Under the pieces are notes generated by a model. It was not told where the DNA came from. It searched no databases and worked only from the letters and a program-made list of their open reading frames with translations. The position numbers and the translations under genes are program-made. Positions 19,775 to 37,768 of a stretch of DNA of 64,000 bases are shown here, piece after piece. Source of the stretch: an uncultured Gammaproteobacteria bacterium (lineage in GTDB: Bacteria; Myxococcota_A; UBA796; JAJRTE01); assembly GCA_964418585.1 (NCBI GenBank), contig CAYQMG010000137.1, forward strand, positions 13,327-77,326, written 5' to 3'. Numbering within the stretch: the first letter of the stretch is position 1; each line of letters starts with the position of its first letter.

Positions 19775-22700
19775 GTGAAGAAATTTGGTGTGCAGCTATT
19801 GTTGTTCCTGTGGTTCCTCGGCATGAGTGTCGGGGTGATGACTGGGTGTTCTTCCGACGACGATGACGACGCGACCACCTACTACACGTCGGAGACGCCT
19901 CCCATCGAGGATGACGATGCGACGGGTGACGACGACGCGACCGGTGACGATGACACCGGAGGGGTGACCCCCACGCCGCCTGTGCGGCCGGGGCCGACGC
20001 CTTCGCCGACCCCGTTGCCGCCCACGCCGACAGCGACCGTACCTCCGGACCACGACGGGGACGGCTACTCCTTGGCCGAGGACTGTGACGACAAGAACCC
20101 CGACGTTCATCCTGGAGCCACCGAGGTGTGCGACAACGTGGACAACGACTGCGATGGTGTGGTCGATGGGGAGAATGCCCAGGACCGGCAGGAGTGGTAC
20201 CCGGATGCGGACCAGGACGGGTATGGAACGTCGACGGACGCGGTCATGGCCTGTTTCCAGCCGGAGGGGTATGCGGACAACGATCAGGACTGTGACGACA
20301 CCAATGCCGGGGTGAACCCGGGGGCGGAGGAGGTTTGCGACGACGAGGACCTGGACGAGAACTGTAACGGTGTCGCCGACGATGCGGACAGCAAGGCCGA
20401 CCCGGCGACCTTCAACACGTTCTATCCGGACGTGGATGACGACGGATTCGGGGACGAAAACGGGGTGCCGGTGCTCCAGTGCGACGTGCCCAAGGGATAC
20501 TCGGACAACAATCTCGACTGCAACGACGAGGATCCCAGGTTCAACCCGGACGCCCAGGAAGACGACTGCACCGATCCGAACGACTACAATTGCGACGGGA
20601 CCACCGGGTATGCCGATGCGGACGGCGACGGCTATGCCGCCTGTCAGGACTGCGACGACGGAAATCCTGCGGTGAACCCCGGGGCGACCGAGGTGTGTGA
20701 CCCGGACAATGTGGACGAGAACTGCAACGACCTGGCCGACAACGACGATCCCAAGGCGGACGATACCACCAAGAGCGCTTTCTACATCGACGCGGACGGG
20801 GACGGCTACGGTGACGAGAACGGCGTGCGGCTCGTGCTCTGCGATCCTCCCGAGGGTTACGTGGACAACAATGGGGACTGCGACGACTCCGACCCGGCTT
20901 ACAATCCCGGGGCCGTCGAGGACGACTGCACCGACCCGAACGACTACAACTGCGACGGCTCCATCGGCTCGGACGACCTGGACGGTGACGGTGTTCCAGC
21001 GTGTGAGGACTGCAACGACAACGATCCGGACATCAGCCCCCTTGCCACCGAGGTGTGCGACCCGGACAACGTGGACGAGAACTGCAACGGCCTCGCCGAC
21101 GACGCCGACGACACCACCGACCCGCTGACCAAGACCGCGTACTACCCCGACGTGGACGGCGACGGCTATGGAGACGAGACCGATCTGGGCACGCTCTACT
21201 GCGACCCGCCTGAAAACCACGTCGCGGACAACACCGACTGCAACGACGCCGATCCGGCTTACAATCCGGGGGCTGTCGAAGATGACTGCACCGATCTCGA
21301 GGACTACAACTGCGACGGCTTTTCAGGCGCCGCCGACCTCGACGGGGACGGCTTCCCCACCTGCAACGACTGTGACGACACCAACCCGGACATCAACCCC
21401 GGAGCCACCGAGGTGTGCGACCCGGACAACGTGGATGAAAACTGCAACGGCACCGCGGACGACGAGGACGCCACCGTCGATGCCGCCACTCAAGCCACCT
21501 ACTATCCGGACAGCGATCAGGACGGGTATGGAGACATGAACGACGCCGGTACCCTCTATTGCGACCCGCCCGAGGGTTACCTGCTGGACCACAGCGACTG
21601 CAACGACACGGACCCGGCCTACAATCCAGCGGCGGTCGAGACCGACTGTGAGGACCCGAACGACTACAACTGCGACGGGTTCGCAGGCGCTGATGACAAC
21701 GATGGGGACGGCTATCTCTCCTGTGAGGACTGCAACGACAGCGACCCGGCTATCAACCCCGGCGCCACCGAGGTGTGTGACGACGCGAATACCGACGAGG
21801 ACTGCGACGGGTTGGCGGACAACGACGACGACAGCGCCGCTCTCCGCACCAAGATTCGTGCCTACGTGGACAAGGATGGGGACGGCTACGGCGCCTCCGA
21901 CGACTCCGGGATTCGCGTGTGTGACCCGCCGGAGGGCTACGCGGACAACAACGGCGACTGCGACGACGGCGACGCCGGCCGCAACCCGGGCCTGCCGGAG
22001 GTGTGCGACCCGGACAACGTGGACGAGAACTGCAACGGCGTCGCCGACAACCGCGACGACACGACCGACCCTGAATCCATGTACAGCTTCTATCCCGACG
22101 CGGACGGCGACGAATATGGTGACATGAACGCCGAACCCATCGTGCGTTGTGATGTCCTCGGGGCCTACTCCACCCTCGGCACCGACTGTGACGATGCCGA
22201 CCCGGAGATCAACCCGGCGGTACAGGAGATCTGCGATGACGAGACAGACAACGACTGCGATGGGAGCACCGACTGCGACGATGGCGACTGTTCCCAGACC
22301 GCAGAGTGCATCGTGATTCCTTGCCCCTATGACGACCTCGGGTCCGCCATGGGCGAGGCTGTGGTCACCGGCTCCAACGAAGGGATGGGCGCGAACCTCA
22401 GCGGGAGTTGCCGTATCGACAGCACCGGCGAAGACGTGGCCTACAGTTGGACCGCACCGCACGACGGCACCTACACCTTCAATACCGACGGGTCGGAATA
22501 CGACACCGTCCTCTACATCCGCGACACGGACTGCGATGGGGACGAACTGGACTGTGACGACGACAGTGGTGAGGGCACACGGTCTCAGATCGTGTTGGAC
22601 CTTGTCGAGGGCCAGGTGATCGTCATTGTGATCGATGCCTACAGCAGCAACTATTCCGGTACCTACCAGCTCAATATCTTCGAGGAGCTGCCACCCACGC

Positions 22701-25700
22701 CGACCCCCGTGCCTCAGTGCCCCGACTATGACCTCGGGTCCGCGGTGGGAGACGCCGTGGCCACGGGTAGTTCCGACGGGGCCGTCGACCGCTACGAACC
22801 CTCCTGTGTCTATTCCAGCGGTGGCGGCGAAATCACCTTCCGCTGGGTGGCGCCCGAGACCGGGGAGTACGTGTTCGACACCAACGGCTCCGACTACGAT
22901 ACCACGCTCGCCCTGTTCCGGAGCTGTGCCGACCCGGTCGAACTCGAGTGCGACGACGACGGCGGAGACGGCCTCCAGTCCAGTCTCTCCTACACCTTCT
23001 CCGCAGGGGACGAGGTCCTCATCATCCTGGACTCGAGCAGCTCGAGCGCCAGCGGCAGCTATGTGCTGAACATCAACCTCCTGGCCGCGGTGACCCCCGG
23101 CCCCACGGCAACGCCGGTCGCCACCGCGACGCCCGCTCCCACGGCGACCCCGGCGCCCTCCTGTCCACAGTACGACCTCGGATCCGTCGTGGGTTCCGCC
23201 GTCGCCACCGGAAGCAACCTGAACGAGGTGAGCAACTTCGATGGTAGCTGCGCTTACAGCACCGGAGGCAGGGATGTCTCCTTCGCATGGACAGCACCTG
23301 AAACCGGAACCTACACGTTCGACACCATCGGCTCTTCCTACGACACGGTCCTGATGTTGTACGACACCTGCGGAGGGACCGAACTCGCTTGTGACGACGA
23401 CGGGGCCGGCTCCCTCAAGTCGGAGATCACTCGAGACTTCGTCGCTGGAGAATCCGTTATCATCGTCATCGATGGCGCCTTCTCCACTTCCTCCGGGGAC
23501 TATGTGCTCAACATCTCGGGCGGCGCCGTGGTGACCCCCACGCCCAGCCCGACACCGCCGCCCACCGCCTCACCGTTCCCTTCCGTCTGTCCGGACGCCG
23601 ACCTGGGGAGCGCCGTGGGACCGGCAGTGGTAGAAGGTAGCAACGTGGGAACGGGGAACGAGTTCGAGGGGTCCTGCGCCTACAGTACGGGCGGTGAGGA
23701 CGTGGCCTTCACCTGGACCGCTCCAAACAGTGGTACCTATGTGTTCGACACCGTCGGGTCGGACTATGACACCGTGCTCATGATCTACTCGGAATGCGGT
23801 GGAACCGAACGTGCCTGCGACGACGACGGGGCCGGCTCCCTCAAGTCCCGTATCTCCATGGACCTGCTCGCAGGCGACATGATCCTCATTGTGATCGACG
23901 CCGCTTCTTCCTACTCGAGCGGCAACTATGTCCTCAACATCACCCCGCCCTCTCTGGAGACGCCCACGCCCACCCCGATCGGCTGTCCGGAATTCGACCT
24001 GGGTTCTGCGATCGGCCCGGCTGTAGCCATCGGGGACAACACAGGGGCCGGCGATGACTTCGAGGGTGATTGCGCCTGGGCTTTCGGAGGGGAGGACGTG
24101 ACCTACGGTTGGGTCGCCCCTGAGACCGGGACCTACACCTTCGACACCATTGGGAGCAGCTTTGACACGGTGCTCTTCCTCTATGCAGACGGCCAGTGCG
24201 GCGGGACCGAACTCGGCTGCAACGAGGACATCGGTGGGGGTGTGTACCAGTCTTCCGTGACCGTCGACCTCGAGGCCGGAGAGTCCGTCGTCATCGTTGT
24301 GGATGGTTATTCCGGATCCACGAACGGTGAGTACGTCCTCAACATCACCCAGGAGACCACCCCCTCCACGTGCACCTCCATCTACGACATTCAGGATGTG
24401 AGCAGCCTGGCCCATCCTGCCGAGGATACTCTCCTGGACGTGTGTCCCGCCGTGGTCACCGCCGTGCTGAACAGTGGGGCCTTCTACATGCAGGCAGCGG
24501 AGGGAGGAGCCTACAGCGGGATCTTCGTCTACCAGTCGAGTTCCACCGGGATTACCCCGGAGGACCTGGCCATCGGGGATGTGGTGGAGGTCACCGGCAC
24601 TTACGTTGAGTACAACGGCCTGTCCGAAATCAGTCTCACCGCGAACAAGGACAGTTCGTCTGTCACCGTGGTCGGGCAAGTGGCGCCGTTGGCCCCTGAA
24701 ATCGTGGACTCCCCGGCGGACATCGGCACCACCGTGGGGGACTGCAGCAACAAGACTGCGGGACCGTTGGCCGAGGCCTATGAAAGCGTGCTCGTCGCGG
24801 TCGAAAACGTGGTGGTCACCGACACCGACCCCTGCGGGGAAGGGTCCTACGGGATCTGGGAGGTCAGTGACTCCATGCTGGTGGACGACACGTTCGACTA
24901 CCTGTACGTCCCCAACGTTGGAGACGAGATCAACCTCCTGGCCGGTATTTCCACTTACGCCTACGGCGAGTTCAGACTGCTGCCGCGGAGCAACCGTGAC
25001 ATCGATCTGGCGGCCTGGAAGAGCATCGAGTTCAAGGCCACGGTGCCCCCCAATACCCCGGCGAGCGACATGATTTATGTATCCGGCGATGTTGCAGAGT
25101 TGGGAAGCTGGGACGCTGCTGGAGTTCCGATGGAGACTGAGGACGGGGTCATCTGGACCGCCACCGTGCTCATCCCTGCGGGAGTCGAGTTCCAGTACAA
25201 GTACACTCGAGGCACCTGGGACACGGTGGAGGGAACCGCTGATTGCGGATACATGGACAATCGGACCGGTTTGGCGAATGCCAACAAGACCATTGTGGAC
25301 ACCATCGCCGGATGGGAGGACTGCCCCGCGGTACAGTTGGCGTGCACACCGGATCAGGATCTGGGCGCCTCGATCGGCTACTACGTGGCAACCGGGAGCA
25401 ATGCGTCCGCCACCGACGACTACAGTCCCTCCACCTGCGCGTCGGGCAGTGTGGGCGGGAAGGACGTGACGTTCAAGTGGAGCGTACCGGAAAGCGGGTG
25501 CTACTACTTCGATACCTATGCGCCCTATTACTCGTCCAGCTACGACACCGTTCTGTACATCCTCGAGACCGATTGCTCCACGGAGATCGCCTGTGATGAC
25601 GATGGAAGTTACTCCTACTGGGGTGAGTCCGAAATCGAGTCCTTCTGCCTCGACGCCGGCACCACCGTCGTCATTGTGGTGGACGCCTACTCGTCGACCG

Positions 25701-25741
25701 ATACCGGAGACTATTACCTCACGATTCTCGGCCCCTATTAG
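19775..25741 (+). CDS. 1988-aa surface lipoprotein: 12 MopE-related Cys/Asp repeats, 6 PPC-like beta-sandwiches, 2 OB-fold-like domains, CBM20-like domain
   Basis: GTG start with GGAG RBS; MTGC lipobox; repeats DxDGDG..DC(D/N)D..P..NP.A.E.C; repeated DLGS..A..GS..SC..G.DV.F.W.AP..GTY.FDT.GS.YDTVL; SIYDIQ..AVVTAV..FYMQ..SGIFVY and YGEFRLLPR; IEFKATVP..IYVSGDVAELGSWD..FQYKYTRG. Confidence 0.85.
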   Translation: MKKFGVQLLLFLWFLGMSVGVMTGCSSDDDDDATTYYTSETPPIEDDDATGDDDATGDDDTGGVTPTPPVRPGPTPSPTPLPPTPTATVPPDHDGDGYSLAEDCDDKNPDVHPGATEVCDNVDNDCDGVVDGENAQDRQEWYPDADQDGYGTSTDAVMACFQPEGYADNDQDCDDTNAGVNPGAEEVCDDEDLDENCNGVADDADSKADPATFNTFYPDVDDDGFGDENGVPVLQCDVPKGYSDNNLDCNDEDPRFNPDAQEDDCTDPNDYNCDGTTGYADADGDGYAACQDCDDGNPAVNPGATEVCDPDNVDENCNDLADNDDPKADDTTKSAFYIDADGDGYGDENGVRLVLCDPPEGYVDNNGDCDDSDPAYNPGAVEDDCTDPNDYNCDGSIGSDDLDGDGVPACEDCNDNDPDISPLATEVCDPDNVDENCNGLADDADDTTDPLTKTAYYPDVDGDGYGDETDLGTLYCDPPENHVADNTDCNDADPAYNPGAVEDDCTDLEDYNCDGFSGAADLDGDGFPTCNDCDDTNPDINPGATEVCDPDNVDENCNGTADDEDATVDAATQATYYPDSDQDGYGDMNDAGTLYCDPPEGYLLDHSDCNDTDPAYNPAAVETDCEDPNDYNCDGFAGADDNDGDGYLSCEDCNDSDPAINPGATEVCDDANTDEDCDGLADNDDDSAALRTKIRAYVDKDGDGYGASDDSGIRVCDPPEGYADNNGDCDDGDAGRNPGLPEVCDPDNVDENCNGVADNRDDTTDPESMYSFYPDADGDEYGDMNAEPIVRCDVLGAYSTLGTDCDDADPEINPAVQEICDDETDNDCDGSTDCDDGDCSQTAECIVIPCPYDDLGSAMGEAVVTGSNEGMGANLSGSCRIDSTGEDVAYSWTAPHDGTYTFNTDGSEYDTVLYIRDTDCDGDELDCDDDSGEGTRSQIVLDLVEGQVIVIVIDAYSSNYSGTYQLNIFEELPPTPTPVPQCPDYDLGSAVGDAVATGSSDGAVDRYEPSCVYSSGGGEITFRWVAPETGEYVFDTNGSDYDTTLALFRSCADPVELECDDDGGDGLQSSLSYTFSAGDEVLIILDSSSSSASGSYVLNINLLAAVTPGPTATPVATATPAPTATPAPSCPQYDLGSVVGSAVATGSNLNEVSNFDGSCAYSTGGRDVSFAWTAPETGTYTFDTIGSSYDTVLMLYDTCGGTELACDDDGAGSLKSEITRDFVAGESVIIVIDGAFSTSSGDYVLNISGGAVVTPTPSPTPPPTASPFPSVCPDADLGSAVGPAVVEGSNVGTGNEFEGSCAYSTGGEDVAFTWTAPNSGTYVFDTVGSDYDTVLMIYSECGGTERACDDDGAGSLKSRISMDLLAGDMILIVIDAASSYSSGNYVLNITPPSLETPTPTPIGCPEFDLGSAIGPAVAIGDNTGAGDDFEGDCAWAFGGEDVTYGWVAPETGTYTFDTIGSSFDTVLFLYADGQCGGTELGCNEDIGGGVYQSSVTVDLEAGESVVIVVDGYSGSTNGEYVLNITQETTPSTCTSIYDIQDVSSLAHPAEDTLLDVCPAVVTAVLNSGAFYMQAAEGGAYSGIFVYQSSSTGITPEDLAIGDVVEVTGTYVEYNGLSEISLTANKDSSSVTVVGQVAPLAPEIVDSPADIGTTVGDCSNKTAGPLAEAYESVLVAVENVVVTDTDPCGEGSYGIWEVSDSMLVDDTFDYLYVPNVGDEINLLAGISTYAYGEFRLLPRSNRDIDLAAWKSIEFKATVPPNTPASDMIYVSGDVAELGSWDAAGVPMETEDGVIWTATVLIPAGVEFQYKYTRGTWDTVEGTADCGYMDNRTGLANANKTIVDTIAGWEDCPAVQLACTPDQDLGASIGYYVATGSNASATDDYSPSTCASGSVGGKDVTFKWSVPESGCYYFDTYAPYYSSSYDTVLYILETDCSTEIACDDDGSYSYWGESEIESFCLDAGTTVVIVVDAYSSTDTGDYYLTILGPY
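20400..21840 (+). repeat. Intragenic tandem repeat with an exact 360-nt (120-aa) period, about 4 copies
   Basis: GACTACAA(T/C)TGCGACGG recurs at 20582, 20942, 21302 and 21662. Confidence 0.85.
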
Positions 25742-25916: not shown

Positions 25917-25958
25917 GTGCCGAGAGACTTTTCTGGCCCGACGAACGAGGAGCTACCC

Positions 25959-28502
25959 ATGGAGACCACGCTTCACCCTTCGCAGCCAGTTGTCGAACCC
26001 ACCCCGTCCCGGCCGGCGTTGAAGCAACCTCGCAGCCTCACACCGCGGATTCAGCGGCTTCGGGACTACTACTTTCGGGGTGTTTCGCGGAAGTGGAACA
26101 ATGAATTCACAGCCTGGACGACAGGAACGCCCTGGGATGTCCAGTACGACGAGTTCAACTACTACATCGTGCCGGAGACCTATCCGTTTCTGCAGACATT
26201 TCGTTCTTCGTTTCGGCAGGTTGCGAGGCGGGTGGCGCTGCCTCCTGATTTCTGGAAGTGGCGTATCGTGGAGCGTCGTGCCTGGTTCATCAAGGAGGTG
26301 ATGGTCCGGTATCTTCCGCACGAGATCTTGCCGGGAGACCTGCTGGCTGGAGCGCGATTCAACATTCAGGCGTCGCGATGCTTGAATCGTGCGGAAGCGC
26401 GCGAACGGGATCGGCGGCTGTTGGGGCGGCGAGGGGCGCGTGCTCGGGTGAAGTGGTTTCACGATCACGGGTATGGGAATGCAGGTGCCACGAGTGGGCA
26501 TATCATCCCTGACTATGCTCGGGTATTGCGGGAGGGGTGGAAAGGCATTCACGCGGACCTGGAGGCCCGGTATCACGGGTTGTCTGCGCGTGAGCGGCGT
26601 TCGGAGAAGGGGGCGCAGCTTCGTGCGATGATGACGGCGGCGTTGATGCCTGGAGAACTGGCGGTTCGCTATGCATCTGAGTGTCGACGGCTTGCGGACG
26701 AGGAATCGGATCCGGGTCGGAAGGAGGAGCTTTTGACCATGGCCGGCAACCTGGATCGAGTGCCCTGGCAGCCGGCCCGCACTTTTTGGGAGGCGGTTCA
26801 ATCGTTGTGGATGACCCATTTGTTGGTGATGGCCGACGAGAACTACCCCGGGCCCGGGTTGTCGTTTGGTCGACTGGACCAGTACCTTTATCCCTACTGG
26901 AAGGCGTCCATCGAGGAGGGGATGAGCCGCTCGTTCGGCAAGGAGATCCTCGAGTGCTTCTGGGTCCACGCCAACACAGCGTATGACGCGATGATTCGGG
27001 TCGGAGCGAACCAGGGGATCACCGCGGGGTATGGCCAGCTTTTCAACATCGGCGGTCTTGGTCCAGGGGGTCGCGACATGACCAACGAACTCACCTGGGT
27101 GTTGTTGGAAGTGATCGACGAGATGAGCCCCATCCTGGAGCCCAAGCCCAACGTGCGGTTGCATCGAAAGACGCCTGAGCCGCTCCTGGACCGGGTGGTG
27201 GACATGATCGCCGGTAGTCAGGGCGCGCCGTTTCTTCTGAACTTTGACGAGCGGTCCATGGCGGGTCTGCTGCGGGAGGCCAGGGAAGCAGGGATCGAGC
27301 ATCTGATCAACGAGTCGAACGTACACGACTACGCCTCGGTGGGATGTTTGGAGAACACGATGGTGGGGAACGACCGGTCGGGCACGGTCAACCTGAACCT
27401 GAATCTGCTCAAGGCGGTGGAACTTGCCTTGAACGACGGTCGAGACCTGTTGCCCGTCCGGGACATGGTGACCGGCAAGGTGGAGCCGATTCGGCAGGCC
27501 GGGCCGAGAACCGGAGATCCCACCACCTTCACCACGTGGGAGCAGTTCTGGGATGCCTACGTGGCCCAGACCAGATACATCGTGAAGGCGGCGGTGGACC
27601 TGTACGAATTGACCGAGGCGGTGCGGGCGCGGTTTTCGCCCACGCCGTACCTGTCCTGCCTGGTGCGAGGCTGCGCCGAGAAGGCGTTGGACGTGACTCG
27701 AGGCGGTGCCGAGATCAACTTTGCGACCATTGAGGGGGTCACATTTGCGACCACGGTGGACTCGCTTTTGGCGGTGAAGTACCTCGTGTTTGACGAGAAG
27801 CACTGTACCATGGCGGAACTGGTCCGGGCGTTGAAGGACAACTGGGAGGGGCATGAAGTGCTCCAGGCCAAGGCTCGGTTCAAGGCCCCGAAGTATGGGC
27901 GGGACGACGACGAGGCGGACGCGATGGCCGAGCGGGTCATGGCGCTGTGGGCCGGGGAGACGTGGAAGCACAGGACCCGGTCCACGGGCGTTCAGTTCCG
28001 TCCTGGCATGTTGAGCTGGAACTACTGGGTGGGAGATGGCTATGTACTGGCCGCGAGTCCGGATGGGAGGCCCAAGGGGCGCTTCCTGTCCAATGCCATC
28101 TGCCCTTCGAACGGTGCCGACACCGAAGGTCCGACAGCCAACGCGAACTCGGTGGGCAAGGCCCTTGGGGGGAGGGCCGTCGGCAAGCCGGGCGACTGGG
28201 AGAGTTACCTCAACCATTTGCCCAATGGCGCCAGCCACACCATGACCTTCAATCCGTCGTTGCTTCGGGACCCGGAACATCGGGCCAAGTTCAAGGCGTT
28301 CCTGCGGGGCTATGCCGAGAACGGGGGGACCGCACTCCAGATCAACGTGCTGGACGCGGACATGCTCAGGGAGGCCCAAAGACATCCCCGCGAGTATCGT
28401 CACCTCCTCGTGCGCGTGACAGGCTACAATGCCTACTTCACCAGCATCGGGCGGGAGTTGCAGGATGAAATCATCGCTCGCGAGAGCCACAGCAAGTATT
28501 GA
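25959..28502 (+). CDS. Glycyl radical enzyme (PFL superfamily), substrate unknown
   Basis: 847 aa; C-terminal glycine loop LLVRVTGYNAYF; Cys loop YASVGCLENT (single Cys, GCxE); FWEAVQSLW, GRLDQYLYPY, PKYGRDDDEAD, ASPDGR. Confidence 0.93.
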   Translation: METTLHPSQPVVEPTPSRPALKQPRSLTPRIQRLRDYYFRGVSRKWNNEFTAWTTGTPWDVQYDEFNYYIVPETYPFLQTFRSSFRQVARRVALPPDFWKWRIVERRAWFIKEVMVRYLPHEILPGDLLAGARFNIQASRCLNRAEARERDRRLLGRRGARARVKWFHDHGYGNAGATSGHIIPDYARVLREGWKGIHADLEARYHGLSARERRSEKGAQLRAMMTAALMPGELAVRYASECRRLADEESDPGRKEELLTMAGNLDRVPWQPARTFWEAVQSLWMTHLLVMADENYPGPGLSFGRLDQYLYPYWKASIEEGMSRSFGKEILECFWVHANTAYDAMIRVGANQGITAGYGQLFNIGGLGPGGRDMTNELTWVLLEVIDEMSPILEPKPNVRLHRKTPEPLLDRVVDMIAGSQGAPFLLNFDERSMAGLLREAREAGIEHLINESNVHDYASVGCLENTMVGNDRSGTVNLNLNLLKAVELALNDGRDLLPVRDMVTGKVEPIRQAGPRTGDPTTFTTWEQFWDAYVAQTRYIVKAAVDLYELTEAVRARFSPTPYLSCLVRGCAEKALDVTRGGAEINFATIEGVTFATTVDSLLAVKYLVFDEKHCTMAELVRALKDNWEGHEVLQAKARFKAPKYGRDDDEADAMAERVMALWAGETWKHRTRSTGVQFRPGMLSWNYWVGDGYVLAASPDGRPKGRFLSNAICPSNGADTEGPTANANSVGKALGGRAVGKPGDWESYLNHLPNGASHTMTFNPSLLRDPEHRAKFKAFLRGYAENGGTALQINVLDADMLREAQRHPREYRHLLVRVTGYNAYFTSIGRELQDEIIARESHSKY

Positions 28503-28512
28503 ATCGGTCGAG

Positions 28513-29529
28513 GTGGAGACCCTCCAGGATGACGCGCGTTCCCGGGAGGGGCTGGTGCTCAACATCCAGCGCATGTCCACCGAGGACGGCCCGGGCATAC
28601 GCACCACCGTATTCTTCAAGGGGTGTACCCTGGCGTGCTACTGGTGCCACAATCCAGAGAGTATCTCCCCTCGCCCCCAACTCCAGTGGTTCGACGTCCG
28701 GTGTATCGGCTGCCGGACGTGCCTCGACGTGTGCCCGCAGCGCGCCCTCTCCGTTCTGGAGGACGCGGTTTCCATTCGGCGAGACCTCTGTCTGGGTTGC
28801 GGCACCTGCACCGACGCCTGCCCCTCCACCGCGCTTGAACTCCTGGGACGCCCCTGGTCAGTGGATTCACTGGTGCGCGAGGTCTCGAAGGATCGGGCCT
28901 ATTTCGAGCAATCCGGAGGCGGCGTCACGGTTTCCGGTGGAGAACCGGCGGTTCAGGCCCCATTTGTGGCGCGATTCCTCGCCGCCTGTCAGGAAGCGGG
29001 GTTGCACACAGCACTGGACACCTGCGGCATGTGCAGTCAGCGTGCACTCGATCGCCTGCTCGCGCACAGTGATCTGGTCCTGTACGATATCAAGGAGATC
29101 GACCCGGTGCGCCACCGCCGGTTCACCGGACGGAGCAACGAGCGGGTGTTGGCCAATGCGGCGCGGGTGGCGGAGTACATGGAAGGCGAAGGGCGGTCGA
29201 CCGTGCTCTGGATCCGGACGCCGCTCATCCCGGGGGCCACGGCCACGGAGGAGAACATCGACGGTATTGGGAAGTTCATCGCCCGAACCTTCGGGGATCG
29301 CGTGTCACGCTGGGAGATCTGTGCCTTCAACAACCTGTGTCGGGACAAGTACCTCCGACTCGGAGAGGCGTGGCGGTGCGTCGATCAACCGCTGCTCAGC
29401 CGGGAGGAGCTGGAACGGTTCGCAGACGTGGCCCGGGGGTCTGGTGTGGATCCGACCATCGTGGTTCCCACCGGGGCGGTTCGTCCGGACGGGGAGGGAA
29501 CGCCCAACAAGGAGAATGGGCCTGGGTAG
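28513..29529 (+). CDS. Glycyl-radical enzyme activating enzyme (radical SAM) with ferredoxin insert
   Basis: EDGPGIRTTVFFKGCTLACYWCHNPES; two extra CxxCxxCxxxC motifs (CIGCRTCLDVC, CLGCGTCTDAC); GGVTVSGGEP. Confidence 0.95.
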   Translation: METLQDDARSREGLVLNIQRMSTEDGPGIRTTVFFKGCTLACYWCHNPESISPRPQLQWFDVRCIGCRTCLDVCPQRALSVLEDAVSIRRDLCLGCGTCTDACPSTALELLGRPWSVDSLVREVSKDRAYFEQSGGGVTVSGGEPAVQAPFVARFLAACQEAGLHTALDTCGMCSQRALDRLLAHSDLVLYDIKEIDPVRHRRFTGRSNERVLANAARVAEYMEGEGRSTVLWIRTPLIPGATATEENIDGIGKFIARTFGDRVSRWEICAFNNLCRDKYLRLGEAWRCVDQPLLSREELERFADVARGSGVDPTIVVPTGAVRPDGEGTPNKENGPG

Positions 29530-29616
29530 CCGGTGGCATGGGGTCCGATTTCGTCGAGCAATGGTGACGGAGCCTGGACAGAGTGCGGTTCGGGGCGTCA
29601 CAGGGGGAGGAAGTCA

Positions 29617-30480
29617 ATGGCAAGGAAATACCGGTGCTTCGAGAACGGCGACATGGAGAAATTCGAGGCGGAGGCCAAGATTGCCCTGTTGGCCACCATC
29701 TCGGAGAGCCGTCAGCCCCATTTGACCTTCCTCTCGTCCCTTCAGGCCAAGACGACCAACACCCTGATGTTCGGGCAGTTTTCCGAGGGGCTGAGCAAGA
29801 AACACGTCAAGTGGAACCCGAACGCTGGATTTCTCATCATGAGTCTGGAGCGGGAGTTGTGGCGGGGTAAGGCCCGCTGGACTCACGAGGTGGGGGAAGG
29901 GGATGACTTCGAGTATTTCAACCGCAAACCAATGTTTCGGTACAACGCCTACTTCGGCATCCATACCGTCCATTACCTGACGTTGATCGAGGTTTCGAGG
30001 CGGCAGCGTCTCCCGTTGCCCGGTATCGTGGCAGGCTCGCTCAAGACCCTGGTCGCGCGGGGCGGAGCGCGGAGCGGTCGGGGCGGCGGCCGGGACGTGT
30101 CTCCCGTGCTTACTCCCTGGGCGGAGTCGCTGTTTCGGCGCCTGGATACGCTCAAGTTTCTCTCCTGGATAGAATCGGACGGGTACCCCACGATCGTCCC
30201 TGTGCTTCAGTGTCAGGCTGCGGACCCCGGCCGGCTCGTCTTCACGCCCACCCCTTTTTCCCAGGATCTCGAGGCGCTCGAGGCCGGTACCTCGGTGGCG
30301 GTTTTCGGGCTGTCCATGCAGATCGAGAACGTGTTGGTCCGCGGGATCTTCACCGGCTTTCGGCGCAGACGGGGAATCCGGTTGGGCCACATCGACCTCG
30401 AGTGGGCCTACAACTCCATGCCGCCCGTTCCGGGACAGATCTATCCCCCGGTGCCCCTCGAGCCGGTGCTCGAATCCTGA
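29617..30480 (+). CDS. Pyridoxamine 5'-phosphate oxidase-like (tandem split-barrel) protein
   Basis: Two related halves (KIALLATISESRQPHLTFLSSL / KFLSWIESDGYPTIVPVLQCQ) with split-barrel spacing; GGGGGAGG RBS. Confidence 0.72.
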   Translation: MARKYRCFENGDMEKFEAEAKIALLATISESRQPHLTFLSSLQAKTTNTLMFGQFSEGLSKKHVKWNPNAGFLIMSLERELWRGKARWTHEVGEGDDFEYFNRKPMFRYNAYFGIHTVHYLTLIEVSRRQRLPLPGIVAGSLKTLVARGGARSGRGGGRDVSPVLTPWAESLFRRLDTLKFLSWIESDGYPTIVPVLQCQAADPGRLVFTPTPFSQDLEALEAGTSVAVFGLSMQIENVLVRGIFTGFRRRRGIRLGHIDLEWAYNSMPPVPGQIYPPVPLEPVLES

Positions 30481-30680: not shown

Positions 30681-32912
30681 ATGACCCCCACACAGCCTGC
30701 TCAGACCAAGGTGCCCGCATGGAAGGCCTACTTCAACCGGCTCGCCCGTGACCCCGCCGTGGCCCGGCTCCGGGGACAGGTTGAGAAGCTCCTCGCAGAC
30801 CTGGACGTGGTCATTCCCCTGGAGCATGGCGACGTGGACGGCGCTGCCTACGAATTGCTCAAGCGGCGCAAGGACGCCGACCCAAAGGAACTGGAGGCCA
30901 TCGACTTCATCCTCACTCACCGGCGATTGCTCGACGCTGGAGAAACCTTCTCTCCGCCCCGGTCGTTCCGTCTGCTTGGCACCGGCACACAACTTCACGG
31001 CCCTGCAGACTACGATCCTTCCGACAAGACCTTCCTGGCCACCCGACGCCTCACCCTGCTCGGCATTCCGATCCTCATTCTGGGGGCCTACCGGGTCACG
31101 CGCGACCAGAAGGGCCGGCTCCTCCCCCTGTCTCGAGTTCCTCTCGAGCCCCATCTCCTGGCCGGCAGACGGATCAAGAGGCGGCTCGTCTTCGCCGTGT
31201 TGGCGCTTGCGGTTCTGGGAGGGCTCTTCGTCTCACGCCCGGACATGGTGTCCTTTTCCTCCTTGCCCAGCGCGCTCCACATCGTAAATGGGCTCGAGTT
31301 CCCGGTCTCGGTCGCCGTGGGGGATGAGACGGTGAACGTCCCTGCACTCGGCCACGTGTCTCACCCGCTCAAGAAGGAGTACTACCATCTCGTGGCCCAC
31401 AACCGCGCGGGCGAGATCATGGAGGAGGAGAACGTGGACAACGCCTCGGGCGAAGGGGTGTTCACCTACAACATCCTGGGCGTTGCCCCCCTGTACACCG
31501 AGGTCGTCAGTTACGCTGCCGACGGGATTGCGGAGCGTTCCCGCACCTGGATGGCACTTCAGCGAACGCAGGAAGTCACCGGCGTTCATGGGGTGTTTGT
31601 GGCCGTCCCGGATCAGGTGCGGGTGCCGTTTTGGAAGGAGGCCGTGGAGCGGCGGTTCGTGGAGGTCGGACCAGGCGGTTGGCTGGATACCGTGCGGGCC
31701 CTGGAGAATGTGGATGACGCCTGGACCGTCCTGACCCGGACGATCGTGGCCGATCCGGAGAACGAGGCGGCTTATCGTGCCGGAGTGGATGTGCTCTATG
31801 CGATGGAGCCCAGGGACGCCATTCAGGCCGCGCGGATGTTTTACTCCAACAACTGGGATTCCACCAATGCCCAGCGCATGCTGATGTGGACGATGATCCG
31901 GGCGGCGGGGAGGGAAGGGGCCGTCGATGCGTACCAGCAGCTCCAGAAAATCGAGCCTGCCACCGCGATTGGCGCGTTGCTGACCGCGCAGGTGGAGCTG
32001 CCCGAGGCCGCGGCAAAACGCCTGGTGCCCGCGGTCAAGCTCTACTCCAAGGATTACTTCCTCCGTCTCGAACTCGGCCGGGCCTTCTATCTCCTGGGGC
32101 GGTTCGAGGACGCCGTGCGGGAGTTCGAGACGTTGGAAAAGCAGAACGAACGGGCGATTCGATCCTGTTATCGGGAGCACGCGCTTTCCCTGATCGCCCT
32201 CGGGAAGCGCTCCGAGGCTGCGCACCTGGTGGCGAATGCGGGCGATCTGGACGGCTTCCCGGTGGATTTCGAGTTCGCGCGCTTCTACGCCACTGTGACC
32301 GCAGGCGTTTCCACCGCACTGAAACCCTACCCATTCGATCACTACCTCGACCGGTCGTCGTTCTACCACCAGGATGAGGTCTATGCCGGAACCCTGTTCC
32401 GTGCACTCACTTCCAGGACCGTGCCCGATCAGGAGGTCCTGGACGCCCTCGCCAACGACACCCAGCGCAATCTCGTGCACCTGGCCGGCGTGATTGCGAG
32501 CGACCTGGACCTCGCCGTCGCCCTCACCCGCGACCTGCCGCTCGAGGCCCTGCGCAAGCTCGACGACGTATCCCTCATTCTGCTCGCCGGCGAGTTCCTC
32601 CGGCGCGGCGCAGAAGATGATGCCGGCGTATGCTTGAACGCGCTTCGCCTGTGGGCTCCCTGGCGTTCCGTCGTCGTTGCAGCGTTGAAGGAACAATCGA
32701 ATCCACCCGAGGTCCTCGACCTGGACCTGGAAATCCAGGCTGCCCTCAAGCTCGTGCAGGCGCGCAGGCTCGGAAAAGCACACAAGGAGTTCGACGCGCT
32801 GATCAAGGAAGCCCGGCGGCTGGACGTGGTCAGTGGAATCGTCACAGCAGCCATACGTTGGCCCATCTCCCCCCTACCGGGTCAGGCCCCGGCCACCCAA
32901 GCCGGGCGATGA
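30681..32912 (+). CDS. Hypothetical membrane protein with TPR-like C-terminal region
   Basis: 743-aa ORF with RBS; TM segments (RLTLLGIPILILGAYRV, LVFAVLALAVLGGLF); TPR-like LELGRAFYLLGRFEDAVREFE. Confidence 0.7.
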   Translation: MTPTQPAQTKVPAWKAYFNRLARDPAVARLRGQVEKLLADLDVVIPLEHGDVDGAAYELLKRRKDADPKELEAIDFILTHRRLLDAGETFSPPRSFRLLGTGTQLHGPADYDPSDKTFLATRRLTLLGIPILILGAYRVTRDQKGRLLPLSRVPLEPHLLAGRRIKRRLVFAVLALAVLGGLFVSRPDMVSFSSLPSALHIVNGLEFPVSVAVGDETVNVPALGHVSHPLKKEYYHLVAHNRAGEIMEEENVDNASGEGVFTYNILGVAPLYTEVVSYAADGIAERSRTWMALQRTQEVTGVHGVFVAVPDQVRVPFWKEAVERRFVEVGPGGWLDTVRALENVDDAWTVLTRTIVADPENEAAYRAGVDVLYAMEPRDAIQAARMFYSNNWDSTNAQRMLMWTMIRAAGREGAVDAYQQLQKIEPATAIGALLTAQVELPEAAAKRLVPAVKLYSKDYFLRLELGRAFYLLGRFEDAVREFETLEKQNERAIRSCYREHALSLIALGKRSEAAHLVANAGDLDGFPVDFEFARFYATVTAGVSTALKPYPFDHYLDRSSFYHQDEVYAGTLFRALTSRTVPDQEVLDALANDTQRNLVHLAGVIASDLDLAVALTRDLPLEALRKLDDVSLILLAGEFLRRGAEDDAGVCLNALRLWAPWRSVVVAALKEQSNPPEVLDLDLEIQAALKLVQARRLGKAHKEFDALIKEARRLDVVSGIVTAAIRWPISPLPGQAPATQAGR

Positions 32913-32977
32913 GCGGAAGCGCCTCGGCCTGGCCTCGGACGTTTCCCGGTTGACGTTCCTGACCGGGGCCGCCAAGC

Positions 32978-33015
32978 TGGTGCGAAGGTTGCGGCGACCT
33001 GGCCCGTTTCTTGCA
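32978..33015 (+). promoter_or_regulatory. Two tandem sigma54 -24/-12 promoter matches upstream of the activator gene
   Basis: TGGTGCGAAGGTTGCG (32978-32993) and TGGCCCGTTTCTTGCA (33000-33015), both GG-N10-GC. Confidence 0.6.
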
Positions 33016-33133
33016 CAGTACCGCCCGCGAAAACAGGCAGCCCGCCACCTGTCGTGGCAGGCACGCAGGCAACCCTCGAGTACACGCGGCCCCCGGGAAG
33101 GCCGCCGCGCAGAACCTGGGCGCATGGTAGGCA

Positions 33134-34486
33134 ATGGAAGGCAATCTCGACAAAAAGTTCCTCGAAACGATCCTCAACTGCATCGCCGACGGCGTGTTCA
33201 CCGTGGACAAGGACTGGAGGATCACCTCGTTCAACAAGGCCGCGGAACGGATTACCGGCGTTCCTTCCGCGCTCGCACTCGGCAAACGGTGCTCCGAAGT
33301 GTTCCACGCCGACATCTGCGAGCACGGCTGTGCGCTGCGCAAAACCGTGGAAACAGGCAAGGACCTGATCGACCTGCCCGCCAGGATACTCAATGCCCGT
33401 GGGCGCGGCGTCCCCATCTCCCTCAGCACATCGGTGCTTCGCGGCCCGGATGGTGAAGTCCTCGGCGCGGTGGAGACCTTTCGCGACCTCTCCGCGATCG
33501 AGACTCTGCGGCGTGAGATCAATAGCAAGTATACCTTCGAGGACATCGTCGGACGCAGCGACGCCCTCAAAAAGGTGTTCGCCATCCTCCCTGATGTCGC
33601 GGAAAGCGACGCCACCGTGCTGATCGAAGGTCCGAGTGGTTCCGGAAAAGAACTCCTCGCCCGTGCCGTACACAACCTCAGCCCCAGACGCAACGCCCCC
33701 TACGTCGTGGTCAATTGCGGCTCCCTCCCGGTCAGCCTGTTCGAATCCGAGCTGTTCGGCTATACCCAGGGTGCGTTCACCGATGCCAAGCGCAACAAGC
33801 CCGGTCGCCTCGCCCTCGCAGAAGGCGGCACCCTCTTCCTCGATGAGGTCTCCGAACTTCCACCTCCAACACAGGTAAAACTCCTCCGGGTCCTCCAGGA
33901 ACGCGAGTACGAACCCCTCGGCGCCGTCAAAACCGTCCGCGCCAACGTCCGAATCGTCGCTGCCACCAACCAAAGACTCGCAGAGCTCGTCACCCGCGGC
34001 GAGTTCCGCGACGACCTCTACTTCCGACTCGCCGTCGTCCGCCTCTCCATCCCCAGCCTCAAAGACCGAAGGGAGGACGTCCCTTACCTCGTCGAGCACT
34101 TCATCCGAAGGTTCAACGCAAAACGGGGAAAAAGCATCACCGGCGTCTCCCCACCCGTCATGGACACCTTGATGCGCTACGACTACCCGGGAAATGTCCG
34201 GGAACTCGAAAACATCATCGAGTACGCCTTCGTGCTTTGTCATGGCCGCATCATCGAAATGGTTCACCTGCCCGAAGAACTCCAGTCGTTCGCAAGAAAA
34301 CTCGGCACCAAGGCAGGGAGCCGCAACGGCACCAGACTCCAGTGGGCAGAAGCCGACATGATTCGATCCGTGCTCGAAAAGGTCGGAGGCCGCGTGGGCC
34401 TCGCCGCCAAGGAGTTGGGAATCAGTCGAACCACCCTCTGGCGCAAGATGAAGCGGCACGGCATCACCCTGTACGAGTTCAAGTAG
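33134..34486 (+). CDS. PAS-sigma54 enhancer-binding protein with Fis HTH; PAS carries C-x8-C-x3-C (OrpR-like)
   Basis: PAS (FNKAAERITG); CSEVFHADICEHGC; GPSGSGKE, ESELFG, GAFTDA, LFLDE, LLRVLQ, RDDLYFRL, PGNVRELEN; HTH GISRTTLWRK. Confidence 0.93.
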   Translation: MEGNLDKKFLETILNCIADGVFTVDKDWRITSFNKAAERITGVPSALALGKRCSEVFHADICEHGCALRKTVETGKDLIDLPARILNARGRGVPISLSTSVLRGPDGEVLGAVETFRDLSAIETLRREINSKYTFEDIVGRSDALKKVFAILPDVAESDATVLIEGPSGSGKELLARAVHNLSPRRNAPYVVVNCGSLPVSLFESELFGYTQGAFTDAKRNKPGRLALAEGGTLFLDEVSELPPPTQVKLLRVLQEREYEPLGAVKTVRANVRIVAATNQRLAELVTRGEFRDDLYFRLAVVRLSIPSLKDRREDVPYLVEHFIRRFNAKRGKSITGVSPPVMDTLMRYDYPGNVRELENIIEYAFVLCHGRIIEMVHLPEELQSFARKLGTKAGSRNGTRLQWAEADMIRSVLEKVGGRVGLAAKELGISRTTLWRKMKRHGITLYEFK

Positions 34487-34522
34487 CGCCAATGTTTCCC
34501 CCCGATACGACATCGCACCGAC

Positions 34523-34556
34523 ATGTTGCAATGTCGCAACGTTGTTTCTGAAACAT
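34523..34556. promoter_or_regulatory. Candidate upstream activating sequences (paired palindromes)
   Basis: GTTGC-N6-GCAAC (34525-34540) and TGTTTC-T-GAAACA (34543-34555), about 210-240 bp upstream of a sigma54 promoter. Confidence 0.55.
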
Positions 34557-34764
34557 TGTTCCAATCCTGGTCCACATGGGAACATCCTTCGGGCTGGTGA
34601 ACCCGAAAATCGAGCCGGTCTCGCTGTTCCAAGGCACCGGTGGGGCGCGAGGGGAGGCGGATGGGCGTTTGTGAGCGGACGATGGTGTGGTTCATGGGTG
34701 AGGAGGGGATGTTTCGAGGGAGGAGGGGGCCGATGTATCGAGAGTGGGGTTGGGCGTGGCGAAC

Positions 34765-34780
34765 TGGCCCGGAGGTTGCA
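34765..34780 (+). promoter_or_regulatory. sigma54 promoter TGGCCCGGAGGTTGCA
   Basis: GG-N10-GC with TTGCA, upstream of the two receiver genes. Confidence 0.6.
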
Positions 34781-34928
34781 GGCAATGGGCGGCGGAGCCG
34801 GTGGCCGGCGGGGGGAAGTTGCCGGACTCGGGGTGCCGGGTTTGGGGGAGGGGACGGGGCGGGCTGGGTGGTGCATGGGGGAGGGGGGTCCAGTCGTTCG
34901 AGCAAGCGGGGGAGGGCGAGGCGTTTTC

Positions 34929-35468
34929 ATGGCAAGGGCGAAGGTGAAGACGGTCCTGGTCGTGGACGACGAGCCGCACCTCAGGCACTATCTTCGGATG
35001 GTGCTGGAGGATGCCGGGTACTGCGTGTTGACAGCCGCAGACGGGCTCGAGGGATTGAATCTGGCTCGGGCGCACCGGCCGGATTTGGTGTCGGTGGATC
35101 TGGCCATGCCGCGGAAGACGGGGTACCGGCTGCTCGTGGAGATGCGGCGTGAGGAGGGGTTGAAGGACATTCCGGTGGTGATCGTGACAGCGCATGCCCG
35201 CGATTCGGTGGGGGTACGTGCGCTCACGGAGCTTCGAGCGGCGGGCTACGATCTGTCGCGGAGCGACTACCTGGAGAAGCCGGTTTCGGCCTCCACCTAT
35301 TTGGCGGCGGTGGCGCGTGCACTTGGCGTGGAGGGGCGTGAGGATTCGCGTTCGGTGGGGGAGTTGCGGGAGTTGTTGAGGAACCGCATCGAGGACGCGG
35401 GGCCTGAAGCGCTGAAGCGGGCGCTGGAGGCCCTGGCGAGGAGTTTGCCGGGGGAGGAGGAGCGGTGA
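34929..35468 (+). CDS. Response regulator receiver protein with short helical C-terminal extension
   Basis: VLVVDDE, PDLVSVDLAMP, IVTAH, LEKP. Confidence 0.9.
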   Translation: MARAKVKTVLVVDDEPHLRHYLRMVLEDAGYCVLTAADGLEGLNLARAHRPDLVSVDLAMPRKTGYRLLVEMRREEGLKDIPVVIVTAHARDSVGVRALTELRAAGYDLSRSDYLEKPVSASTYLAAVARALGVEGREDSRSVGELRELLRNRIEDAGPEALKRALEALARSLPGEEER

Positions 35469-35546
35469 TCGAAGGGGGGAGGTTTGTCGGCCGTGGGTCG
35501 GAGCTGAATCCGAGAGACGATCAACTTGATGAAAGGAGAGGAGAAG

Positions 35547-35954
35547 ATGACGGCGAGTGCCGGGAAGAAGAGGATACTCATTGTGGAGGATGAGCCGCAC
35601 GTGGCGATGTATCTGGAGACGTTGCTTCAGGATCACGGCTACGAAACGGAGATAGCGGCGAACGGGCGTGAGGCGTGGGAGCGAGCCCGGAAGAAACGGC
35701 CCGACCTGGTGTCTCTCGACATCACGATGCCGGAAGAGTCGGGGATCCGGTTCTATCGGCGCCTGAAGGAAGACCCTGACCTGGCCGACGTCCCGGTCAT
35801 TGTGGTGACCGCGGTGACCGGCTACGGTGGGGACCCGGAACCATTCAAGAACTTCCTGGACACTCGTCGACAAGTTCCACCGCCTGAGGGCTTTTTCTCG
35901 AAGCCCATCGATCGGGATGCTTTCCTGGAAGCAGTGGCCCGGCAACTCGCCTGA
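35547..35954 (+). CDS. Single-domain response regulator (CheY/DivK-like)
   Basis: ILIVEDE, PDLVSLDITMP, VVTAV, FSKP. Confidence 0.92.
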   Translation: MTASAGKKRILIVEDEPHVAMYLETLLQDHGYETEIAANGREAWERARKKRPDLVSLDITMPEESGIRFYRRLKEDPDLADVPVIVVTAVTGYGGDPEPFKNFLDTRRQVPPPEGFFSKPIDRDAFLEAVARQLA

Positions 35955-36165
35955 ATGGCCGGTCTGGGAAAGGCGCGTTCCAGCTTGTTCCCTGCCTCGC
36001 AAGATGCTACCGTTCGCATGAGTCCGTTTGGCGCTCGTTGCGGTTCCTGTCCAGGCCGCGGGGCCGAGGTGTATGATACGGGCTCGAGGCGGTGGCCGCG
36101 GCGCGGAGAAGGGTCGGCGTGCGGGGTCGCGTGCCGGGGGGGGCGTCGTTTCGAGGAGGATGCGC

Positions 36166-37749: not shown

Positions 37750-37768
37750 GCCTTCATGGAGCAGGACG

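Follow-up and report, generated by a model that had tools for sequence, protein, structure and literature searches.

A glycyl radical enzyme of unassigned class, its activase and a tandem split-barrel protein form a gene module conserved across bacteria and archaea

Three co-directional genes in a 64-kb stretch of DNA from an uncultured bacterium (assembly GCA_964418585.1, contig CAYQMG010000137.1, positions 13,327 to 77,326 of the forward strand; 64% G+C; "the window" below) encode an oxygen-sensitive glycyl radical enzyme (GRE), a GRE-activating radical-SAM enzyme (the activase), and a tandem split-barrel protein of the PNPOx/FMN-binding fold, here called the partner. They fill positions 25959-30480 and are all intact, with their motifs (Table 1). 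GRE, activase, and double split-barrel protein make up a module conserved across bacteria and archaea. The GRE is of a familiar mechanistic type, with a highly conserved, unassigned pocket; what has no earlier description is the dedicated third component. The reading we favor, with moderate confidence, is that a 1,2-eliminase-type GRE acts on a small polar hydroxylated substrate, possibly one related to glycerol, and that the dedicated flavin-fold partner processes its product, the whole forming one functional module.

A scan of GTDB species representatives returned at least 426 stretches with relatives, and the best 80 of these 426 were taken for the synteny and neighborhood counts. All 80 come from metagenome-assembled genomes (MAGs), with GRE identities of 68-87%. 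The hosts, uncultured anaerobes, include Myxococcota, Spirochaetota, Chloroflexota (Anaerolineae), lineages of the Thermodesulfobacteriota/Desulfobacterota, Binatia, Bacteroidota, Caldisericota, Bdellovibrionota, and others; sediments, peat, aquifers, digesters, and vents are represented among the loci examined. The family members listed include no cultured organism. The nearest genome to the window is a Myxococcota MAG (L002), with 87% amino-acid identity over the GRE. No RNA-seq runs with the window sequence were found, and only two DNA runs, one of them a hydrothermal vent metagenome.

Synteny was counted over the 61 loci with at least 2.3 kb of sequence 3′ of the GRE gene. The order GRE, activase, partner is found in 55 of these, and in four others the partner follows the GRE with no activase between them; one locus has the activase only, and one has neither. 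With the partner present in 59 of the 61 loci and the activase in 56, linkage of the partner is at least as tight as that of the activase. Compared with the proteins of the window, the median identity is 71% for the GRE, 57% for the activase, and 50% for the partner. In a reverse look-up, all three partner homologues followed up on long contigs lie in a GntR-GRE-activase-partner cassette. A sister clade of the GRE (44-54% identical) occurs in Jordarchaeales, Freyarchaeota, Nezhaarchaeales, Abyssubacteria, Bacillota, and Dehalococcoidia; the cassette arrangement is found in five of the six distinct sister-clade loci inspected (L083 and L084 being near-identical), and in one sister-clade locus the partner adjoins the GRE without an activase between.

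Membership of the GRE in its superfamily (PFL-like division) is indicated by a PFL-like barrel, a C-terminal glycyl radical domain with RVxG, a catalytic Cys, and a cognate radical-SAM activase; the Pfam matches (PF02901, PFL-like, 418 bits, E = 9e-125; PF01228, Gly_radical, 78 bits, E = 1e-21) exclude a chance resemblance. Assignment to any one class is another matter. The active site has one Cys instead of the adjacent Cys-Cys pair of pyruvate formate-lyase (PFL), and the score on TIGR01255 is 71.6 bits against a cut-off of 994. The protein is in fact under all NCBIfam equivalog cut-offs, including those for HypD (NF043068, 390 against 1100), CutC (314 against 1050), and sulfopropanediol dehydratase (374 and 355 against 1000); its highest score, 417.5 on TIGR01774 (PFL2-3 subfamily), falls short of that profile's 678. 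The top sequence match in the PDB is HypD (E = 3e-96). A Foldseek search with the AlphaFold2 (AF2) model (pLDDT 86.7, pTM 0.89) gave TM scores of 0.72-0.82 at 23-28% identity to solved GREs, with the model roughly equidistant from glycerol dehydratase (GD), HypD, propanediol dehydratase, Archaeoglobus fulgidus PFL2, CutC, HpsG, YbiW, HplG, and IslA; eliminases and isomerases rank ahead, and benzylsuccinate synthase (BSS) and MASS are the most distant among the best 50 matches listed.

An earlier note on this DNA had taken the single-Cys GCLE loop and the RVTGY loop as signs of a GRE of unassigned class, distinct from canonical PFL, and had seen no small beta/gamma subunit, microcompartment shell, or choline, diol, or hydroxyproline pathway genes beside it. 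Both motifs are present, precomputed Pfam annotation has none of these genes within ±10 kb, and the protein neither clusters tightly with a characterized GRE nor keeps the substrate residues of one, so that this part of the note holds.

The N-terminal region sets the clade apart. When 1.84 billion 50%-identity representative sequences were searched, the GRE family appeared as one cluster (65% identity, 1317 bits), followed by a handful of sister clusters (36-48% identity) with the same N-terminal ~180 residues, aligning from residue ~15-25, and then by generic GREs (33-38% identity) that can be aligned only from residue ~175. PDB alignments all start near residue 180, and the Pfam PFL-like match begins at residue 192 of the 861-aa open reading frame (ORF; about residue 178 of the 847-aa protein), at profile position 156; residues 21-180 of the model have pLDDT 81-98. 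As a side observation, in five sister clusters (P0242, P0245, P0248, P0251, and P0256) the clade-specific N-terminal domain is present in sequences that are otherwise degenerate. Four of the degenerate clusters stop ahead of the glycyl radical domain and lack CxE, and P0242 has Phe for the catalytic Cys; judged by these losses, they may be radical-less GRE-like pseudoenzymes.

Pocket residues known from the literature were mapped onto the window GRE through HMMER alignments (GD, CutC, IslA/IseG, and HpsG from PMC13450708; HypD from PMC7077986). The mapping is self-consistent, GD Phe333, CutC Phe389, and HypD Ser334 all falling on Thr355, in agreement with the HypD paper (PMC7077986). His181, Cys463, Glu465, and Gly822 correspond to GD His164, Cys433, Glu435, and Gly763; in GD, Glu435 deprotonates and His164 protonates (PMC13450708), and HypD His160 is essential (PMC7077986). 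His181 is kept in 120 of the 120 family members listed and in the sister clade, and C463-L-E465 is invariant in both groups, matching the CxE motif defined for GREs (PMC13450708) that marks 1,2-eliminases and isomerases.

Around these catalytic residues, the pocket equals no characterized GRE pocket. The B12-independent GD of Clostridium butyricum (DhaB1/DhaB2, 1R8W) is the top Foldseek match (TMt 0.82, 25% identity), and GD and 1,2-propanediol dehydratase have in common with the window GRE the ten-stranded barrel, the Gly loop, CxE, the general-acid His, and an adjacent ferredoxin-type activase. Despite the retained His and Glu, however, GD His281, Ser282, Asp447, Tyr339, and Tyr640 are replaced by Pro299, Gly300, Val477, Leu361, and Leu685, and the N-terminal ~180 residues are remodeled. 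HypD (6VXC) likewise shares CxE and the conserved His, but its Asp278, Ser334, Asp339, Phe340, Tyr450, and Thr645 become Pro299, Thr355, Gln360, Leu361, Asn480, and Trp687. With CutC and IslA/IseG/HpsG the common features are the fold, CxE, and the logic of 1,2-elimination, and CutC Thr502 corresponds to the invariant Thr476; CutC Asp216, Phe389, Phe395, and Tyr506, on the other hand, are replaced by His181, Thr355, Leu361, and Asn480, and the window locus has no microcompartment genes. The sulfonate-binding triad of IseG (Arg187, Gln191, Arg676) falls on Ala177, His181, and Gly683, the first two positions being extrapolated beyond the start of the alignment.

The replacement residues are themselves invariant in 120 of 120 listed family members. 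In a 50-sequence alignment of family and sister clade (including Asgard archaea and Bacillota), some 21 pocket residues are invariant (H181, G298, G300, S302, Q360, L361, C463, E465, N466, T467, S474, G475, T476, V477, N480, G683, L685, S686, W687, N688, and Y689), and Arg681 is conserved in at least 90%. This set points to a small, polar pocket, rich in Asn, Gln, Ser, and Thr, with two Gly-rich loops and one conserved Arg. At position 478, next to Thr476 and Val477 of the pocket, Asn is found in the window GRE (codon 27390-27392) and in its nearest relative (L002); 74 of the 76 loci and 118 of the 120 database members have Asp, which is near-invariant in the sister clade too, and Asn478 is a lineage-specific change.

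The activase scores 301.7 on NCBIfam TIGR02494, against a cut-off of 174. With its CX3CX2C and two CxxCxxCxxxCP motifs, it has the full set of motifs by which it would install the glycyl radical on Gly822. A ferredoxin insert is usual in non-PFL activases, and so the one seen here, correctly recorded in the earlier note, is not a distinguishing feature.

The partner, which that note had described as a tandem split-barrel protein, is indeed modeled by AF2 as two beta-barrels linked by a helix (pLDDT 86.8, pTM 0.85); its conservation beside the GRE goes beyond the evidence then in hand. In Foldseek, each half matches split barrels of ~120-150 aa (probability 1.0, TMt 0.6-0.75, 11-17% identity) and superposes on HupZ, on FMN-binding proteins of Syntrophomonas (Swol_0183) and Desulfovibrio vulgaris, on the prenylated-FMN maturase PhdC, and on F420-dependent reductases (FDORs). 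The split beta-barrel fold of the PNPOx-like superfamily is thus present, although at the sequence level the Pfam PNPOx_N matches to the two halves are weak (E = 5e-4 and 0.24; the 315-aa ORF scores 29.3 bits, with the cut-off at 28.1), as is the internal repeat found by hhalign, in the correct register (E = 1.4e-3, probability 17%). Homologues form 2902 clusters at E ≤ 1e-5, typically of 281 aa and named hypothetical or PNPOx family.

Unlike the PNPOx-like proteins compared, the partner has its two barrels in one chain, as a pseudo-dimer, and its gene always adjoins that of a GRE. Sister-clade partners may be either tandem (261-338 aa) or single-barrel (140-152 aa; L088:10318-10776 and L089:9539-9961), and the tandem form accordingly looks like a fused homodimer. 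An alignment of 52 partner sequences has 55 invariant columns, with a single invariant Cys (C199) and no metal-cluster motif. A Ser60-Lys61 helix cap followed by N-P occurs in the first barrel only; we take it, as a lead only, to be like the phosphate-binding motif of PNPOx-type proteins, and it may be a candidate phosphate site. The most conserved stretches include the loop MFRYNAYFGIHTVH and the C-terminal tail, both modeled with low confidence (pLDDT 68-73 for residues about 105-119, and about 50-77 for residues 263-277). Conserved segments of low modeling confidence are often seen where a segment folds against a partner.

The surroundings of the cassette were surveyed by clustering the 80 loci and by Pfam scans of 242 flanking ORFs; no conserved pathway genes were found there besides a regulator. 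It is a GntR/FadR-type (FCD) protein, nearest at sub-threshold scores to NanR, LldR, GlcC, PdhR, and FadR; its gene, the sole frequent extra one, immediately precedes the cassette in the same orientation in 36 of 80 loci. Sparser but recurrent neighbors are a true glycerol kinase, GlpK (immediately upstream in five loci of Syntrophaceae, and divergently oriented to one sister-clade cassette), an L-lactate-type major facilitator superfamily transporter (above cut-off), a 2-hydroxyacid dehydrogenase like glyoxylate/hydroxypyruvate reductase, aldehyde:ferredoxin oxidoreductase (AOR), an iron-dependent alcohol dehydrogenase (Fe-ADH), and, in five loci from four phyla, sulfatases. Together they hint at a C2-C3 polyol, a hydroxy acid, or a phosphorylated C3 compound as substrate, and at an aldehyde as product.

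In the mechanism suggested by the conserved residues, the radical would pass from Gly822 to Cys463, which would take a hydrogen atom from a hydroxyl-bearing carbon of the substrate; Glu465 would deprotonate that hydroxyl, while His181 would protonate the leaving group on the neighboring carbon, and this would depart. The product radical would then regain the hydrogen to give a carbonyl compound, as in the 1,2-eliminase (dehydratase-type) mechanism of GREs. The Cys-x-Glu motif and the His, as in GD and HypD, suggest an ordinary 1,2-elimination or isomerization on a new substrate. The new radical chemistry proposed in the earlier note is unsupported as stated: it is conceivable, but the evidence does not indicate it, and the demonstrable novelty is in the substrate and the third component.

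In known GRE operons, the third gene processes the product: dhaT, for an Fe-ADH that is unlike the split-barrel protein, follows the GD genes, and P5C reductase follows hypD, whose clusters consist of GRE, activase, and a product-processing enzyme. By analogy with these operons, and given its flavin-type fold, the partner would work directly with the GRE, most likely as a flavin-type enzyme acting on the GRE product; a physical complex of the two is possible.

Several points weigh against this picture of an eliminase with a product-processing flavin enzyme. Elimination and isomerization are not separable by sequence, because GRE isomerases have the same CxE motif. Besides the regulator, no neighbor occurs in more than ~10% of loci, and none supports a substrate assignment. 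The window copy itself departs from the common pattern, having Asn in place of the near-invariant Asp478 and no GntR gene, with a MopE-repeat protein upstream instead. As for the partner, flavin binding is a prediction from the fold, whose best structural match, HupZ, binds heme, and its most conserved segments, the low-confidence loop and tail, suit a docking subunit as well as, or better than, a free-standing enzyme.

This last point leads to the best of the alternatives, which we consider possible though rather doubtful: the partner might serve the GRE as an accessory subunit, either non-catalytic or with a redox function, in the manner of BSS beta/gamma, HPAD gamma, or MASS delta, or else be a low-potential FMN electron donor for the activase. 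Like those proteins, it is an extra small protein encoded with a GRE and plausibly bound to it. It stays beside the GRE where the activase is not adjacent (four loci, and L089), which would suit a subunit and argues against a role with the activase only. Its invariant residues gather in the loop and C-terminal tail, as one would expect of interface segments, and the remodeled N-terminal 180 residues peculiar to this GRE clade could be the docking site; in L083, moreover, the activase stop overlaps the partner start. The fold resembles the D. vulgaris FMN-binding protein, which is electron-carrier-like. In a Syntrophobacteraceae MAG, the operon of limonenylsuccinate synthase, another GRE, also encodes a PNPOx-like protein, LssP, which is expressed (PMC12583861), so PNPOx-fold proteins may accompany more than one kind of GRE. 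One argument on the other side is that the known GRE subunits are HiPIP-like [4Fe-4S] or rubredoxin-like iron proteins (PMC13450708). The partner, with its two split barrels in 287 aa, its single invariant Cys, and no motif for a metal cluster, lacks such a Cys-ligated Fe-S or Fe site, and as an accessory subunit it would therefore be new.

A bolder version seems to us a long shot. In it the partner would be an obligate GRE subunit bearing a flavin or other cofactor, coupling the radical reaction to electron or hydride transfer, for example to dehydroxylate a substrate reductively or to bring about a net redox conversion. We know of no PFL-like GRE with such coupling; if it were true, conservation of a redox-coupled GRE-partner pair would extend from Myxococcota to Asgard archaea.

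It is also unlikely that the GRE works as an isomerase like HplG, YbiW, and PflD, in which case radical cleavage of a C-O or C-N bond in a ring or ether would give an isomeric ketone with no net elimination. The CxE motif and the logic of hydrogen abstraction are common to GRE isomerases, and YbiW, PflD, and HplG are about as near structurally as the eliminases. The GPG (298-300) and SGT (474-476) loops, together with Arg681, could bind a phosphate group such as that of a sugar phosphate, and FGGY kinases recur nearby. The top sequence and fold scores, however, belong to GD, HypD, and propanediol dehydratase; His181 equals the dehydratase general acid; and no aldolase or sugar-phosphate pathway genes are conserved in the neighborhood.

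We regard as improbable a third proposal, in which the GRE is a second type of B12-independent dehydratase for glycerol (or ethylene glycol or propanediol) and the partner gene is incidental. The catalytic His, Cys, and Glu are identical to those of GD, and GlpK is adjacent in two lineages; in L057 and L079, Fe-ADH and AOR follow the cassette, as in diol disproportionation, and for Pelobacter a GRE that dehydrates ethanediol has been postulated (PMC3543383). But the GD substrate ligands are replaced at five positions, GlpK is found in only ~6 of ~90 loci, and a partner that is linked in 59 of 61 loci of the main family and recurs beside sister-clade GREs of bacteria and Asgard archaea is not incidental. 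The names carried by database entries for family members (pyruvate formate-lyase, formate C-acetyltransferase, benzylsuccinate synthase alpha subunit, trans-4-hydroxy-L-proline dehydratase, or hypothetical) do not fit the active site as read from its residues, and the PFL or BSS function that many of them imply is contradicted by the single Cys and the TIGR01255 score in the first case, and in the second by the lack of BSS small-subunit genes and by the structural distance from BSS/MASS.

Table 1. Features of the three-gene cassette; positions are those of the window
Feature	Position	Strand	Basis or remark
GRE gene, 847 aa	25959..28502	+	Translation; Pfam PFL-like and Gly_radical; gene call with exact product on record; AF2
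Ribosome-binding site GAGGAG ahead of GRE gene	25948-25953	+	Direct reading of upstream sequence
Clade-specific remodeled GRE N-terminal region, aa 1-180	25959..26498	+	Outside Pfam PFL-like profile and PDB GRE alignments
His181 codon	26499..26501	+	Alignment mapping; equals GD His164 (general acid) and CutC Asp216
Cys loop G-C463-L-E465 (CxE motif, single Cys), aa 462-465	27342..27353	+	Translation; invariant
Strand FRPGMLSWNYW, aa 680-690	27996..28028	+	Aligned to pocket-lining strand of IseG (R676/V678/F680), GD (Y640), HypD (T645)
Glycyl radical loop R-V-T-G822-Y, aa 819-823	28413..28427	+	Translation
GRE-activating radical-SAM enzyme, 354 aa	28465..29529	+	From ATG 28465 (overlaps GRE stop); alternative GTG start 28507
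Activase CX3CX2C (CTLACYWC)	28624-28647	+	Motif read in translation
Activase ferredoxin motifs CxxCxxCxxxCP, two copies	28702-28737, 28789-28824	+	Motif read in translation
Tandem split-barrel (PNPOx/FMN-binding fold) partner, 287 aa	29617..30480	+	Pfam, AF2, Foldseek, hhalign
Partner barrel 1 (residues 21-127)	29677-29997	+	AF2 model
Partner barrel 2 (residues 179-266)	30151-30414	+	AF2 model
Partner conserved S60-K61 helix cap	29776-29808	+	Alignment of homologues
Partner conserved loop MFRYNAYFGIHTVH, residues about 106-119	29932-29973	+	Alignment of homologues
Partner conserved C-terminal tail W-x-Y-N-S-M-P-P-x-P-G-Q-I-Y-P, residues 263-277	30403-30447	+	Alignment of homologues

The protein encoded directly upstream of the cassette in the window (19775-25741, + strand) is ~2000 aa long, with nine Cu-binding_MopE repeats, a galactose-binding-like domain associated with the type IX secretion system, and a CBM20 starch-binding domain; an orthologue holds the same position in the Myxococcota MAG locus L002. 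On the 3′ side (30681-39277) lie genes for a 743-aa protein that matches nothing in Pfam, for a PAS-sigma54 activator (33134-34486) and two response regulators that stand alone, for an FGGY kinase resembling xylulokinase (36028-37749), and for a pyridoxal phosphate-dependent decarboxylase, none of which is kept beside the cassette in other loci. This FGGY kinase at first clustered with GlpK, but was rejected as evidence, being xylulokinase-like and 5.5 kb off.

A CrtI/phytoene-desaturase-family FAD protein is encoded near the cassette in loci from several phyla (L012, L019, L031, L048, L049, L057, L090, and L091), sometimes with an FNR-like reductase bearing a 2Fe-2S domain. As clues to function, this pair (~8 loci), the sulfatases (five loci), and a PlsC-type acyltransferase (~5 related loci) were set aside as too sparse or lineage-bound. 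Second GREs beside the cassette in L047, L065, and L092 were rejected as clade members, since they are ordinary GCVE/GCNE-type enzymes. In two of these loci a GCVE-type enzyme directly follows the partner (L047:12440-14809 and L092:6881-9250, no adjoining activase being called in L092), and further GRE genes lie nearby at L065:14609-17113 and from L087:16037.

Full-text literature searches found no description of this GRE clade, or of a GRE with a PNPOx/split-barrel partner, LssP being the sole related mention. Neither the clade nor such a partner appears in a comprehensive GRE review from 2026, which notes that entire clades remain unvalidated (PMC13450708). The present clade is unusually conserved: members from different phyla are about 70% identical, and their pocket is invariant. 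GREs catalyze reactions that are hard to reach without oxygen, and each newly assigned clade has brought a new anaerobic pathway. Because databases name members of this family as PFL, benzylsuccinate synthase, or HypD, metabolic reconstructions of MAGs may wrongly infer formate or hydrocarbon metabolism from them. Once identified, the substrate and the role of the partner would extend the GRE superfamily by a pathway as well as by a new architecture.

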